Source: an uncultured Candidatus Peribacteria bacterium
GTDB taxonomy: Bacteria; Patescibacteriota; Gracilibacteria; Peribacterales; Peribacteraceae
DNA length: 57,078 nt
Assembly: GCA_964434585.1 (NCBI GenBank)
Contig: CAYSVN010000001.1
Coordinates: 1 to 57,078, forward strand
Direction: 5' to 3'
The position numbers were made by a program, and so were the translations under genes. Positions 6,778 to 38,761 of the stretch are shown here, piece after piece (within the stretch, counting starts at the first letter, position 1; every line of letters starts with the position of its first letter). Below the pieces are notes generated by a model that saw only the letters and a program-made list of their open reading frames with translations, did no database searches and was not told where the DNA came from.

Positions 6778-6825
6778 CGGTATAACTAGTCATGGCTCGT
6801 CTTCGCTCACCATGACAACACAGTG

Positions 6826-7206
6826 TCACCCTGAGCGAAGACGAAGGGTTGCACTGTGTTGAATAAACATGTGTAGCCTTTTACGAAGGTGATGAGAATC
6901 ATTTTGACATTGTGATAAAATATTAAGCTTATCACTATCATTTTTTATAAGAGCTTTCTTCTTTCTTCGACTCCATTTTTTAATACGTTTTTCCCAATCG
7001 ATAGCATCAAGTACGTATTGAAACGCAGCGGTATACACTAATTGTATTGGTCGTTTCTTAAATGTATAACAAGTAGTATAAAAGCCAAATTGATGTTGCC
7101 ATAATCGCTTTGGTAAATCACTTGTTATGCCAATATAAAAAGAATCATCAACACACTTTAACATATAGACAGTATATTCTTTTTGCATAGGTGAACGATT
7201 ATACAC
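6826..7206 (-). CDS. GIY-YIG nuclease domain protein (small, stand-alone)
   Basis: YTVYMLKCVDDSFYIGITSDLPKRLWQH. The C-terminal tail is encoded by the CCCTGAGC..CGAAGGG mini-palindrome at 6827-6850. Confidence 0.8.
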   Translation of the reverse strand: MYNRSPMQKEYTVYMLKCVDDSFYIGITSDLPKRLWQHQFGFYTTCYTFKKRPIQLVYTAAFQYVLDAIDWEKRIKKWSRRKKKALIKNDSDKLNILSQCQNDSHHLRKRLHMFIQHSATLRLRSG

Positions 7207-12901: not shown

Positions 12902-13300
12902 ATGAAGCCTCATTTACCTGAAAGATTTAGAATACAAGTCAATCCTAATAATGGCATTCTTTGCGATTTTAGCAATAATTTTAATGAAATTGCCAGATGG
13001 CTTAATAGTTCTCGCACAAGAGTTGGCGATACATTAGAGAGTTGGCAAAGTAAGTTAAGAGGAATGCCAACGTATACAGAATACATTGAAAGGAAATGTA
13101 GAATGAAGCCATTAATTGAAAAAAAATCAGCAATTCAAATAGTTGCAGAATTAACGGAGACAGTAGAGGCAAAAAATCTGAATAGAATTGTATTAGAGCT
13201 CCGTAAAATTGGTATATTGAATCCCGAAGAACACAGAGAGACAGTTCGCGATTTAGTAAATGATGCAAGTCAAATTTTTAAACAAGGATTAGATAAATAA
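12902..13300 (+). CDS. Hypothetical protein
   Basis: ORF only; no recognisable motif. Confidence 0.4.
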   Translation: MKPHLPERFRIQVNPNNGILCDFSNNFNEIARWLNSSRTRVGDTLESWQSKLRGMPTYTEYIERKCRMKPLIEKKSAIQIVAELTETVEAKNLNRIVLELRKIGILNPEEHRETVRDLVNDASQIFKQGLDK

Positions 13301-13324
13301 TCTTTAAGCATGCTAATACAAATA

Positions 13325-13344
13325 GAGCGGAGACGGGTCGTTTT
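13325..13344. repeat. Left arm of a 20-bp perfect inverted repeat flanking the SLH gene
   Basis: GAGCGGAGACGGGTCGTTTT is the exact reverse complement of 14386-14405. Confidence 0.9.
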
Positions 13345-13453: not shown

Positions 13454-14383
13454 ATGAAAAAATTAGCATCATTACTATTATTAATTATAATACCAGCTGC
13501 CGCTTTGGCTGCTTTTCCTGATGTACCAGAGCAGTCACAGTACTTTGACGCTGTGGAGTACGCAAAACTTAATGGTATTGTAAATGGATATGATGATGGA
13601 ACGTACCGACCAAATGTAACAATTAACCGAGCGGAGTTTGTTAAAATATTAGTAGAATCTAACTTTACTGTAGCCGATGTAGAAAGCTGTACTGTGGATT
13701 CTATGGCGTACAGCGACGTGCCAAGTGCAGCTTGGTATGTGCCATATGTTTGTGTGGCAACAGAAGAAGGTATTATTAAAGGTTATGAAGATGGAACATT
13801 TAGGGCCGCTAATACTATTAATTTTGTAGAGGCTGCTAAAATTATTATTGCTACTGAAAATGGCGGAGAGATTGCTGGGGATCCTTGGTACCAGCCATAC
13901 GTTATTTCACTGAGTGAACGTAATGCTATTCCAACAGCTATAACAACATTAGATCATAATGTTACCAGGGGAGAAATGGCCGAAATGATGTATAGAACAT
14001 TGCAGTCTATTACAGATAAGCCTTCAACGACATATAACACATTGGCAGGCATTGAGGAGCAATCTGCAATATTAACGCCTGTAGATGGCAGTAATTCAAC
14101 AGGAGTAGCAAATGCTACGTGGGATGGTACAGAATATAAAGTGGTTGCAACATTTAGTAATCTTCCAGAAGCATTACCAGGCTTCTTTTATGAAGGCTGG
14201 GTTGTGCGCCCAGGTGCTAACCTGAGTATTATATCCACAGGTGTAGCTGACGGCATAACCGGTAATATATTTACGAGTAATCAAAATTTAATAGACCATA
14301 CTAGGTATGTGTTAACATTAGAGCCAGACGATGGAGATCCGGCACCAGCTCCAGAACATACTGTAGAAGGAGACTTTAATTAG
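13454..14383 (+). CDS. Secreted S-layer homology (SLH) domain protein
   Basis: Signal peptide LLLIIIPAAALAA; SLH-like repeats FPDVPEQSQYFDAVEYAKLNGIVNGYDDGTYRPNVTINRAEFVKIL and YSDVPSAAWYVPYVCVATEEGIIKGYEDGTFR. Confidence 0.75.
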   Translation: MKKLASLLLLIIIPAAALAAFPDVPEQSQYFDAVEYAKLNGIVNGYDDGTYRPNVTINRAEFVKILVESNFTVADVESCTVDSMAYSDVPSAAWYVPYVCVATEEGIIKGYEDGTFRAANTINFVEAAKIIIATENGGEIAGDPWYQPYVISLSERNAIPTAITTLDHNVTRGEMAEMMYRTLQSITDKPSTTYNTLAGIEEQSAILTPVDGSNSTGVANATWDGTEYKVVATFSNLPEALPGFFYEGWVVRPGANLSIISTGVADGITGNIFTSNQNLIDHTRYVLTLEPDDGDPAPAPEHTVEGDFN

Positions 14384-14385
14384 AA

Positions 14386-14405
14386 AAAACGACCCGTCTC
14401 CGCTC
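14386..14405. repeat. Right arm of the 20-bp perfect inverted repeat flanking the SLH gene
   Basis: AAAACGACCCGTCTCCGCTC. Its core GACCCGTCT.CGC is shared with the GIY-YIG element TIR at 37564. Confidence 0.9.
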
Positions 14406-14564
14406 ATTTATTATAGTAAGATGAAGTGAATGTATTATATTTATTAAAATCGATAGCTGCTTCGGGGTCTTTTCGCAGATAAAGCTAGCAGTAACTGCAT
14501 AAAGGGCGCGAAGCAATGCAATAACGAGCGTAGTGAGTTATAAATGGAGACGGCCCGTTTCTCC

Positions 14565-36893: not shown

Positions 36894-37559
36894 ATGAAAC
36901 TTAACAAAGAAATTCTTGTATTTTTAAAAGAGCTCGCACTTAATAATAATAAGACATGGTACAACGACCACAAAGACCATTATAAAAAACTAAGAACAGA
37001 GTTTCACGATTGGCTAAACCAAGTAGCAGCAGTAATTGCTATGTTTGACGAGCGAGTACGTGACCATCTAGATAACAAAAAAACAATTAAAGTTTTTAGA
37101 CTACAACGTGATACACGGTTTTCTAAAGGTAAAGATCCTTATAAGCTTAATTTTGGTGGCAGTATTTCTGCTGGAGGCATGGACGAATTAAACCCAGGGT
37201 ATTACCTACATATAGAGCCTGGTAATTGCTTTATAGCCGGTGGACTTTATATGCCAGCTAAGCAAAAGCTTGCAGCCATCCGCGATAAAATGCTTACCGA
37301 CCCTAAAAAAATACGTGCAATTTTAGCCAATAAGCAATTACAGAAACATTTTAGTGGTTTAAGTACAGATGGTGACTTAAAAACTGCCCCCCGCGGATAC
37401 GATAAAGAAGATCCTAATGTAGACTTACTACGCCATAAGCATTTTATTTTATATAAGCAGGTAAAAGATAGCGATGTGTTTAAGTCAAATTTTATAAAAG
37501 ATGTGCTTGATGCCTACAAAGCCATGGAGCCACTACATAGTTATCTTGCTAAGGCTTAA
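36894..37559 (+). CDS. DUF2461 (TIGR02453) family protein
   Basis: NNNKTWYNDHKDHYKK, RDTRFSKGKDPYK, GYYLHIEPG..FIAGGLYMP. Confidence 0.75.
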   Translation: MKLNKEILVFLKELALNNNKTWYNDHKDHYKKLRTEFHDWLNQVAAVIAMFDERVRDHLDNKKTIKVFRLQRDTRFSKGKDPYKLNFGGSISAGGMDELNPGYYLHIEPGNCFIAGGLYMPAKQKLAAIRDKMLTDPKKIRAILANKQLQKHFSGLSTDGDLKTAPRGYDKEDPNVDLLRHKHFILYKQVKDSDVFKSNFIKDVLDAYKAMEPLHSYLAKA

Positions 37560-37563
37560 GTGT

Positions 37564-37946
37564 GACCCGTCTGCGCCTGTCTACGACAGTCTCCGTCGAG
37601 GTCACTTGATATAATATTTAAGGTGTACTATTATACACCCCTATGTTTCATTATGTATACTATTTACAGACGGAAGACAGTTGTCATTGGTATGTTGGAG
37701 TTACAAATAATCTTAAGCGTAGATTATTTGAACATAATAATGGGTTGAGTAGGCATACAAGTAAATATCTACAGCATCAAAAATGGAAATTGATGTCCTA
37801 TTTTGCTTTTCCAGACCGGCGTATCGCAGAAGAATTTGAGGATTACTTAAAATCTCAATCTGGAAGAGAATTTGCTAAAAAACATTTTACTCCATTTGCA
37901 AATGAAGACCTCGACGGAAGACGTCAAAGACGTCTGTAGACGGGTC
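37564..37946 (+). mobile_element. Candidate miniature mobile unit: GIY-YIG ORF bounded by 40-bp terminal inverted repeats
   Basis: 37564-37603 GACCCGTCT[20 nt hairpin]CCGTCGAGGTC versus the reverse complement of 37907-37946 GACCCGTCT[20 nt hairpin]CCGTCGAGGTC. The outer 9+11 nt are identical; the inner hairpins differ by compensatory changes. Confidence 0.55.
37643..37939 (+). CDS. GIY-YIG nuclease domain protein (small, stand-alone)
   Basis: YVYYLQTEDSCHWYVGVTNNLKRRLFEHNNG. The C-terminal LDGRRQRRL is encoded by the right TIR. Confidence 0.8.
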   Translation: MFHYVYYLQTEDSCHWYVGVTNNLKRRLFEHNNGLSRHTSKYLQHQKWKLMSYFAFPDRRIAEEFEDYLKSQSGREFAKKHFTPFANEDLDGRRQRRL

Positions 37947-37968
37947 GTATTCATGCTACAATACACCT

Positions 37969-38508
37969 ATGCAAACCTACGCAGTATTCCTTCGCGGCAT
38001 TAATATTAATGGGCATAACAAAATGCCGATGGCAGAACTACGCTCCGCGTTAGAGATGGCAGGTTTTACTAATGTTAAAACGGTATTGGCTTCGGGTAAT
38101 GTTTTACTTGATAGTAATCAATCAATAGAAGTGACGCAGGAGGTAGTATCAGACGCCATTGAAAAAACATTCGGTTTTAAAGTAGCGATTATTACCCGCA
38201 CACTTAAGTACTTGCAGCAATTAATTGATAGTAGTCCATTTAAAGAATTAGCTGACGATAAAGATTTAAAGCCTAATATTACGTTTTTACAAGAATCCAT
38301 AAACACTTCGGGCGATGAGCTACTAATGGAACCAGGGGAATTTAAAGTAGTGGCAGCAACAAATACTGAGATACTCAGCATTGTTTATATGGATGGTAAA
38401 AAACGAACTCTTGGTTTAATGAAAGCGTTAAAAGAGCAGCACGGAAAAAATATTACCACCAGAACTTGGAAAACAGTAGTAAAATTAGCTTTGCTTTCGG
38501 GGTCGTAA
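37969..38508 (+). CDS. DUF1697 family protein
   Basis: YAVFLRGININGHNKMPMAELRSALEMAGFTNVKTVLASGNVL. Confidence 0.75.
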   Translation: MQTYAVFLRGININGHNKMPMAELRSALEMAGFTNVKTVLASGNVLLDSNQSIEVTQEVVSDAIEKTFGFKVAIITRTLKYLQQLIDSSPFKELADDKDLKPNITFLQESINTSGDELLMEPGEFKVVAATNTEILSIVYMDGKKRTLGLMKALKEQHGKNITTRTWKTVVKLALLSGS

Positions 38509-38533: not shown

Positions 38534-38618
38534 GCCCAGGTGGTGGAATTGGTAGACACGCTGGTCTTAGGAACCAGTGCCGCAAGGCGTGAAGGTTCGA
38601 GTCCTTTCCTGGGCACCA
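38534..38618 (+). tRNA. tRNA-Leu (anticodon TAG), class II with long variable arm, CCA encoded
   Basis: Acceptor GCCCAGG/CCTGGGC, anticodon arm CTGGT-CTTAGGA-ACCAG, T arm GAAGG-TTCGAGT-CCTTT, ACCA 3' end. Confidence 0.9.
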
Positions 38619-38678
38619 TTAACAACATAAAATTAAACTACTATTAATAACTGCGTGGACGAGAAGTTTATCCTGAGC

Positions 38679-38699
38679 CTATCGAAGGGAGTCCTTTCC
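38679..38699 (+). repeat. Exact 21-nt duplicate of the tRNA-Leu 3' end
   Basis: GAGTCCTTTCCTGGGCACCAT is identical to 38599-38619, offset by 80 nt. Preceded by GAAGG (a T-stem with the TTC deleted) and a CCTGAGC..CGAAGGG mini-palindrome. Confidence 0.85.
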
Positions 38700-38761
38700 T
38701 GGGCACCATCGCTAACAATTATTATCAAGTAAATAAAGAAAAAGTATGTTATAATTTAACG

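Follow-up and report, generated by a model that had tools for sequence, protein, structure and literature searches.

Does a small nuclease gene lying between two hairpin-forming inverted repeats make up a minimal insertion sequence (IS) with ends of its own, or something else? The question is raised by a 383-bp unit, positions 37564-37946 of the DNA analysed here. This window of 57,078 nucleotides is contig C1 of the genome of an uncultured Candidatus Peribacteria bacterium (1.185 Mb, ~1.19, in 92 contigs; 38.5% G+C; ~96% complete). The unit consists of two inverted arms that bracket a promoter plus the open reading frame (ORF) of a GIY-YIG nuclease. Its "terminal repeats" turn out to be opposite halves of one palindrome from a repeat family. 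Comparisons within and between genomes show a specific and persistent link of gene and repeat, and that the 383-bp unit is inserted DNA. The probable reading is a nuclease-palindrome partnership of the Ssn/SRM kind, of which the unit is one inserted copy, rather than an IS that has terminal repeats of its own. Below, C numbers denote contigs of this genome and L numbers denote other genomes and their loci.

Arms, promoter and nuclease gene

The unit is made up of the following features, where P1 is the outer and P2 the inner stem and L and R are their left and right halves.

37564..37603, + strand: left arm, beginning 4 nt past the DUF2461 stop codon
37564-37572, + strand: P1L GACCCGTCT, outer 9-nt block of the left arm
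37577-37589, + strand: left-arm mini-hairpin CTGTC-TAC-GACAG
37593-37603, + strand: P2L CCGTCGAGGTC, inner 11-nt block of the left arm
37606..37634, + strand: promoter-like TTGATA-17 nt-TATTAT, 10/12 matches, directly adjoining the left arm
37643..37888, + strand: nuclease core, 82 codons, single-domain GIY-YIG, all paralog-invariant motif residues retained
37889..37939, + strand: C-terminal extension, 16 codons plus TAG; the first ~5 residues are common to the L105 ortholog and the remainder is read-through into the right arm
37907..37946, + strand: right arm, composed of P2R, mini-hairpin and P1R
37907-37917, + strand: P2R GACCTCGACGG, right arm
37919-37935, + strand: right-arm mini-hairpin AGACGTC-AAA-GACGTCT
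37938-37946, + strand: P1R AGACGGGTC, right arm

The first-pass annotation of this DNA described 40-nt terminal inverted repeats that agree exactly over 9 nt on the outside and 11 nt on the inside, and both the sequence and a repeat search bear this out. The inverted-repeat search returns a single 40-nt pair, 37564-37603 and 37907-37946, which is 73% complementary and separated by 303 nt. Two nested stems result, an outer one of 9 bp (P1, GACCCGTCT / AGACGGGTC) and an inner one of 12 bp (P2, (T)CCGTCGAGGTC / GACCTCGACGG(A)). Exact copies of the inner block CCGTCGAGGTC number two in the window and two genome-wide, in each case those of the unit's arms. Allowing up to one mismatch, it has 3 matches in the window against 0.11 expected, a count that 0 of 100 shuffles reach. 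The outer block GACCCGTCT has 4 occurrences in the window, where 0.05 are expected, and 12 genome-wide. The central 20 nt of each arm were also said to fold into a hairpin of their own through different sequences. Both mini-hairpins are present and their sequences differ. Folded alone as DNA, each arm gains only modestly over shuffles (z = -1.1 to -2.5). Joined, the arms form a long hairpin of -34 kcal/mol as DNA and -53 to -59 kcal/mol as RNA. An intrinsic-terminator scan of the + strand has no match at either arm, neither of which has a T tract, and the proposal of two independent terminators is rejected on these grounds. Rfam, searched at gathering scores and at E <= 1, has no match at the arms and returns only tRNAs and one chance match.

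The ORF between the arms (37643-37939) encodes 98 residues. Pfam GIY-YIG (PF01541) covers residues 3-75 with E = 4.5e-14, and no other domain is present. Proteins of this family usually end at residue 83 (...KKHL / ...LKHY, KHY), which the 15-residue tail here exceeds. The right repeat had been read as coding for the end of the nuclease, and the last 11 codons plus TAG do lie inside the right arm. The gene is intact, 40 alignment columns are invariant, conserved candidates for the active site are Tyr4/Tyr6/Tyr17, Arg26/27 and Glu63/66, and the ratio of nonsynonymous to synonymous substitution (dN/dS) is 0.08 for the closest paralog pair, with dS saturated against the ortholog. The nuclease gene is under strong purifying selection and, being intact and constrained, appears functional. 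An NCBIfam search of the nuclease gave no informative family, with TIGR01453 scoring 16.5 bits against a cut-off of 56. The nearest solved structures by sequence are UPF0213 (1zg2, E = 6e-9) and SLX1 (E = 5e-4). The nuclease is the only ORF of the unit, in which no transposase (DDE, HUH, serine or tyrosine recombinase) is encoded. A tblastn search against plasmids gave zero matches for the unit's protein and two Methylobacterium matches for the second GIY-YIG gene type of the window only.

The -10 box lies 8 nt ahead of the nuclease ATG, so the leader of the nuclease mRNA is very short or absent. In the genes examined (small GIY-YIG, DUF1697), -10-like boxes stand 6-10 nt ahead of the ATG, for example at 37629-37645 and 37957-37971. 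This spacing suggests leaderless or very-short-leader mRNAs in this organism. The stretches CTATTATACACC and CTACAATACACC were considered as a target-site duplication and rejected; they are the -10 boxes and short leaders of two genes, a pattern common in the genome.

A palindromic repeat family and its GIY-YIG genes

Iterated nhmmer searches of the genome recovered ~19 repeat loci beyond the unit, ~20 in all. The block GACCCGTCT is the core of AAACGACCCGTCTCCGC, which opens and, inverted, closes a ~190-nt intergenic repeat. Members of the family are 80-200 nt long and share the layout P1L - hairpin A - P2L - loop - P2R - hairpin B - P1R. The outer stem is CGACCCGTCTCCG / CGGAGACGGGTCG, followed by linkers, and the inner stem is, for example, GCTACGCCGAGGTCTTTG / CAAAGACCTCGGCGTAG, with the apical loop within. 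P1 half-sites number 29 in the genome and 5-11 in shuffled genomes. The copies have diverged to 57% mean column identity, and paired changes between copies are found in both stems. In two short variants (C54:6969-7050 and C30:9198-9290) the AT-rich linkers are replaced by small hairpins, which is the layout of the unit's arms, and the left arm aligns with both variants. The gene module of the unit is placed at the position of the P2 (apical) loop. Most copies are gene-less, and most begin 2-20 nt past the stop codon of a co-oriented gene; the unit begins 4 nt past DUF2461. The window holds two further copies.

14387..14560, + strand: full gene-less P1/P2 repeat copy, beginning 3 nt past the stop of an SLH-domain gene
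13284..13343, - strand: partial repeat copy (P1L plus ~45 nt), inverted

The SLH-domain surface-protein gene at 13454-14383 is bracketed by the inverted P1L ends of these copies (13284-13343 and 14387-14560). The bracket is reminiscent of the NTS-gene-NTS arrangement around Neisseria membrane-protein genes.

The genome encodes 14 stand-alone GIY-YIG ORFs of ~80-150 codons, one of them stop-interrupted, in addition to UvrC. They fall into at least seven subfamilies. The unit's gene belongs to subfamily A, which has five members, the other four being 57-66% identical to it. Each of these four has a copy of the repeat 0-63 nt beyond its stop (C6:3813-4007, C4:36479-36661, C18:12354-12482 and C6:32972-33128). 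All five subfamily-A genes (5/5) touch the same repeat family, which sustains the earlier proposal that the nuclease gene and the hairpin ends belong together. Chance adjacency of all four paralogs to ~19 loci in 1.19 Mb, estimated at ~1% per gene, is very unlikely. The other GIY-YIG subfamilies of the genome go with different repeats or stand near tRNA genes.

Homology of the five paralogous loci starts at the -35 box, so the movable module is the promoter plus the ORF, ~300 bp. From locus to locus, the gene precedes P1L, occupies the P2 loop or follows P1R. In an inverted-repeat test around each ORF, the unit is the only standout among the 14 genes. By the first-pass annotation, other copies of the ORF without such ends would refute its reading, and this applies in part: the four paralogs of the genome are unbracketed. 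Measures of flanking k-mers add little, as 11-mers cover 21% of the genome and are uninformative. A 12-mer measure marks 8 of the 14 GIY-YIG genes against 28% of background genes and is too blunt for diverged repeats.

The window carries one other gene of this type.

6826..7206, - strand: second small GIY-YIG gene, of the other clade (EK.IKKW type), its tail reading into the GTCACCCTGAGCGAAGACGAAGGG repeat at 6825-6848

As first described, this gene ends inside a hairpin, CCCTGAGCGAAGACGAAGGG, but the hairpin belongs to a different family, GTCAYCCTGAGC(N6)CGAAGG. This second, larger repeat family is found at 6790-6850 of the window and genome-wide, and its copies often lie within longer palindromes. 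A looser search for CCTGAG...GAAGG gives 47 matches. The three subfamily-C GIY-YIG genes have 3' ends that read into GC-rich hairpins of the GTCAYCCTGAGC or a similar kind. The subfamily-B genes at C4:24024-24598 and C6:15273-15770 each stand behind a tRNA gene (Met and Arg, respectively). These two loci have a common palindromic stretch, CGTAAAAGTCGC..., between tRNA and gene, and the C4 locus also repeats the tRNA tail CACGTGGCACCA. At C83:1997-2342, a GIY-YIG gene of 79 residues has a complete tRNA-Leu(CAA) on one side and, on the other, an incomplete duplicate of this tRNA that starts at the D loop and reaches the 3' end. Inserted in the duplicate is a hairpin, CCTGTCTGCCGACAGG, which resembles the left-arm mini-hairpin of the unit. 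L061 and L073, from another phylum, have the same layout as the C83 locus.

Insertion site, sister lineages and tRNA tails

The unit and a short spacer separate two protein-coding genes.

36894..37559, + strand: DUF2461 family gene, upstream flank
37947..37968, + strand: spacer, with -10-like TACAAT (37957-37962) ahead of DUF1697
37969..38508, + strand: DUF1697 family gene, downstream flank

The corresponding sites of sister lineages were located through DUF2461 homologs that are ~85% identical. A check for empty sites in related genomes, suggested at first pass, found one in L110, where the DUF2461 stop overlaps the DUF1697 start (TAATG). Relative to this junction the segment is an insertion. 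In L107, L108 and L109, the same site has a gene-less spacer of 153 nt, and in it lies a four-helix palindrome that differs in sequence and whose P2 loop measures 18 nt. This palindrome is followed by the CATGCTACAAT promoter, as in the window. The CATGCTACAAT of the spacer is common to the window and the L107 lineage and is absent at the L110 empty site. In L105, a different gene lies downstream of DUF2461, and an ortholog of the nuclease is found ~0.9 kb upstream of it. The ortholog has 71% amino acid identity to the unit's protein, as against 57-66% for the paralogs within the genome, and shares part of the C-terminal extension. A full palindrome follows it directly, and the P1 GGCCCGTCTTC and P2 CGTCGAGGCC of this palindrome align with the arms of the unit. 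The L105 ortholog thus stands at another site with a homologous palindrome, which indicates that gene and palindrome stay together while the site changes, as does the place of the gene relative to the arms. An exact look-up of the unit found it in the same population only.

The upstream gene has a narrow distribution, DUF2461 being absent from 38 of 40 related genomes. Outside the four close lineages its nearest relatives are <=51% identical, and those that are named are mostly from Bacteroidota. This distribution fits acquisition of the DUF2461/DUF1697 pair by horizontal transfer.

Among named organisms, Candidatus Peribacteria (Peregrinibacteria, Patescibacteria) have the closest relatives of the nuclease gene. 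A related gene is present in 47 of 60 other genera of the family, and a close, subfamily-A-like one in ~16, mostly as a single copy. At 22 of 32 loci, a co-oriented tRNA gene of one identity or another ends 41-355 nt upstream. The four-helix palindrome begins directly past the tRNA CCA at most of the subfamily-A-like loci. Outer and inner stems stand around the ORF as in the unit at L085, L088 and L100. The two-tier bracket recurs around orthologs from three other genera, where it is accompanied by a directly repeated tRNA tail. The direct repeat behind the gene measures 15 nt in L085, 21 nt in L088 and 16 nt in L100, so that all three bracketed loci carry one (15-21 nt), and L093 has one of 16 nt. 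The unit itself follows a protein-coding gene, not a tRNA, and has no direct repeat at its ends. Among more distant Patescibacteria genes, L026, L027, L028 and L031 have significant bracketing inverted repeats. We found no publication on GIY-YIG hairpin mini-elements at tRNA tails.

In L100, from another Peribacteria genus, the bracketed unit behind tRNA-Gln has four nested long-range stems of 20, 17, 13 and 11 bp. Some of these stems lie inside the ORF, and the whole gene could fold back on itself. In the window, a stretch of 70 nt (38619-38688) that contains the repeat CCTGAGCCTATCGAAGG comes after tRNA-Leu(TAG) (38534-38618). The exact 20-nt tail of this tRNA, GAGTCCTTTCCTGGGCACCA, at 38599-38618 is then repeated at 38689-38708. 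The same arrangement is found behind tRNA-Arg (C11) and tRNA-Lys (C17). This arrangement looks like a mini-insertion, without a gene, at tRNA tails.

Readings of the unit and comparison with known systems

A published counterpart exists in Neisseria meningitidis. SsnA is a 94-residue single-domain GIY-YIG protein of family cd10448 (Chenal et al., Nat Commun 2025, PMC11893778). It binds the hairpin repeat NTS on single-stranded DNA (ssDNA) and cuts just upstream of it (PMC11893778). NTS flanks the ssnA gene itself, and 42% of homologous genes are repeat-flanked on both sides (PMC11893778). The authors note the IS-like NTS-ssnA-NTS layout and a parallel with REP/RAYT (PMC11893778).

By analogy with SsnA, the nuclease of the unit would recognise the folded hairpins of its own repeat on ssDNA and nick beside them. 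Nicks at the bases or tips of the hairpins could provoke repair or recombination, and these might occasionally copy or relocate the palindrome with or without the gene module. Such events would explain why there are gene-less copies and why the gene is found in three positions relative to the arms. The old gene may be kept by the spread of the element. Alternatively, it may have been taken into host service, for example in recombination control around the bracketed SLH gene.

Several results weigh against this reading. The relationship to SsnA was assessed with a proxy tree of nine genes from genomes with exact NTS repeats, and for two of these genes (L064 and L069) NTS-like repeats on both sides were confirmed. 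The nine genes and the second gene type of the window (EK.IKKW) form one clade, and the unit's protein is in a separate clade (SH-aLRT 95). The SRM consensus HGTCWYN(0-2)YYVSBRHN(0-5)WNVSBRGN(0-2)RNCYNB, validated as a regular expression on canonical NTS sequences, has 3 matches in the genome, where shuffles give 1-4, and no match in the unit. The unit lacks a target-site duplication, its flanks TAAGTGT| and |GTATTCATG having no direct repeat, and at 10 gene-less copies none is seen either. Four other assemblies of the same population carry an identical unit, with no presence/absence polymorphism. The DUF2461 tree of the four lineages is a polytomy, so that gain here and loss in L110 are not polarised. 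Bracketing is confined to 1 of 5 subfamily-A genes in the genome and 3 of 28 loci in the wider family. Near-identical copies are absent, given the divergence of paralogs (57-66% identity) and repeats (57% mean column identity). The age of the paralogs and the purifying selection on them (dN/dS 0.08), like the lack of a target duplication, speak in particular against a putative self-mobilisation of the unit.

The first-pass annotation called the unit a minimal selfish unit of nuclease plus hairpin ends. Of this description, the linkage of nuclease and repeat and the insertion stand. The ends turn out to be halves of a mostly gene-less repeat, and there is no sign of recent transposition because the paralogs are only 57-66% identical and under purifying selection. 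Its remark that the unit is not recognisable as a classical IS agrees with the lack of a transposase, of a target duplication and of near-identical copies, alongside the inverted repeats and the empty site that are present.

A serious but unlikely alternative is passive co-location. Here the small GIY-YIG genes are host repair or recombination factors that accumulate, like the repeats, in the few places where a compact genome leaves intergenic room (tRNA tails, gene ends), the bracket has arisen because gene or repeat came by chance to lie inside the other, and the nuclease does not act on the repeat. Strong purifying selection on old paralogs is in keeping with this, as are the gene-less state of most repeat copies, the rarity of bracketing, the variable position of the gene relative to the repeat and the presence of other repeat families at tRNA tails in the genome. 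Such sharing of spots is at odds with the finding that 5/5 subfamily-A genes lie 0-63 nt from one repeat family of ~19 loci and that other subfamilies keep to other repeats. It is also at odds with the L105 ortholog, which at a different site again stands beside a homologous palindrome, and with a gene-repeat linkage that is conserved across genera. In addition, a specific interaction of nuclease and repeat has been proven for SsnA (PMC11893778).

There is a small chance that the element acts at the level of RNA. The arms and P1/P2 repeats would then be stabilisers or processing sites in the 3' untranslated region of the upstream gene, or would control translation of the nuclease through 5'/3' pairing, and selection would be on RNA folding. 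The usual start of the repeats 2-20 nt past the stop of a co-oriented gene, the compensatory differences between stems of different copies and the high stability of the joined arms as RNA (-53 to -59 kcal/mol) would suit such a role. Compensatory change is, however, equally expected of DNA palindromes. The position of the promoter at the left arm leaves that arm outside the nuclease mRNA unless there is read-through, and the arms have no T tracts, no + strand terminator matches and no Rfam family. An RNA role also leaves the empty site, the relocated ortholog and the tRNA-tail duplications unexplained.

It is highly improbable that the 383-bp unit is a self-sufficient, integrase-free transposon whose GIY-YIG enzyme excises and inserts it via the 40-nt ends: the inverted ends around a single nuclease gene, the empty site in a sister lineage and the direct repeats of the tRNA target in bracketed relatives are set against the absence of a target duplication at the unit and of a second identical copy, four unbracketed paralogs, ends shared with many gene-less repeats (57% identical on average) and an enzyme class with no known strand-transfer activity. 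To our knowledge, no hydrolytic GIY-YIG nuclease has this activity.

A partnership of nuclease and palindrome is thus preferred, and it can be carried one step further. The palindrome and its ~83-residue nuclease could be a new kind of mobile DNA in which folded DNA, rather than a protein domain, supplies recognition, a proposal that is speculative and that we consider doubtful. The nuclease would cut the base or tip of hairpins extruded on ssDNA. Repair by the host would then place copies of the palindrome, in some cases with the gene module, at tRNA tails in most genera or just behind stop codons here. If this is true, units of ~300-400 bp would be the smallest self-contained mobile elements, and the gene-less copies would be explained as non-autonomous derivatives.

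In the ultra-small genomes of the candidate phyla radiation (CPR)/Patescibacteria, small stand-alone GIY-YIG genes rank with the most common genes that lack an explanation. One small GIY-YIG clade is a hairpin-guided ssDNA nuclease tied to genomic repeats (PMC11893778, 2025). The present results suggest that a second, separate GIY-YIG clade is in a partnership of this kind too, with a composite palindrome that differs in structure. Beyond the published Ssn work, three states are seen at one locus or close to it (an empty site, the palindrome alone, and the palindrome with the gene), and the gene-palindrome pair is relocated in a sister lineage. If the nuclease acts on its own palindrome, new tools would follow in the form of ssDNA nucleases with sequence or structure specificity. 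There would then also be a testable model for the spread of palindromic repeats and for the way in which they reshape compact genomes, the bracket around a surface-protein gene included.

Among known systems, UPF0213/YhbQ (PDB 1zg2, 1ywl) and the nuclease domain of SLX1 are the best solved-structure sequence matches to the unit's protein. SLX1 is a structure-specific nuclease for branched DNA that needs SLX4 and has a RING domain. We know of no description of a repeat association for UPF0213/YhbQ or SLX1. On the choice between homing endonucleases and YhbQ/UPF0213-like families, raised at first pass, the unit's protein has no homing DNA-binding domain and matches UPF0213 1zg2 best among structures; 1zg2 groups with the other clade in the tree.

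Homing endonucleases (the T4 Seg family, such as SegB in a tRNA gene cluster, and I-TevI) share with the unit the GIY-YIG catalytic domain, presence or absence at a fixed site between related genomes, and the tRNA association seen in relatives. They differ in having >200 residues, whereas the 83-residue core of the unit has no DNA-binding domain. Moreover, the unit has hairpin arms and a cellular rather than a phage context, and the target direct repeats seen in its relatives are not a product of homing.

The REP/BIME-RAYT system (IS200/IS605-like Y1) also has a small gene between inverted palindromic repeats that are multiplied as gene-less intergenic copies. Gene and repeats are likewise old and co-evolving, not freshly transposed. 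The enzymes differ, that of the unit being a hydrolytic GIY-YIG nuclease and theirs an HUH tyrosine transposase. We know of no covalent DNA intermediate for GIY-YIG nucleases.

The closest published system is Ssn/SRM. The two differ in clade in the proxy tree, the unit's protein being in the other major one (YLKSGxG type, against EKQLKKW type). The repeats of the unit are composite four-helix palindromes of 80-200 nt present in tens of copies, against 20-50-nt hairpins in hundreds, and relatives of its gene target tRNA tails with duplication. Cleavage is published for SsnA and predicted by analogy for the unit's nuclease. In both systems, a single-domain GIY-YIG protein of ~80-100 residues (83 in the core of the unit) is encoded by a gene that has inverted, hairpin-forming repeats on its 5' and 3' sides, and further copies of these repeats lie in other parts of the genome. 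In both, these repeats bracket other genes as well, a gene for an SLH surface protein here and genes for membrane proteins in Neisseria.

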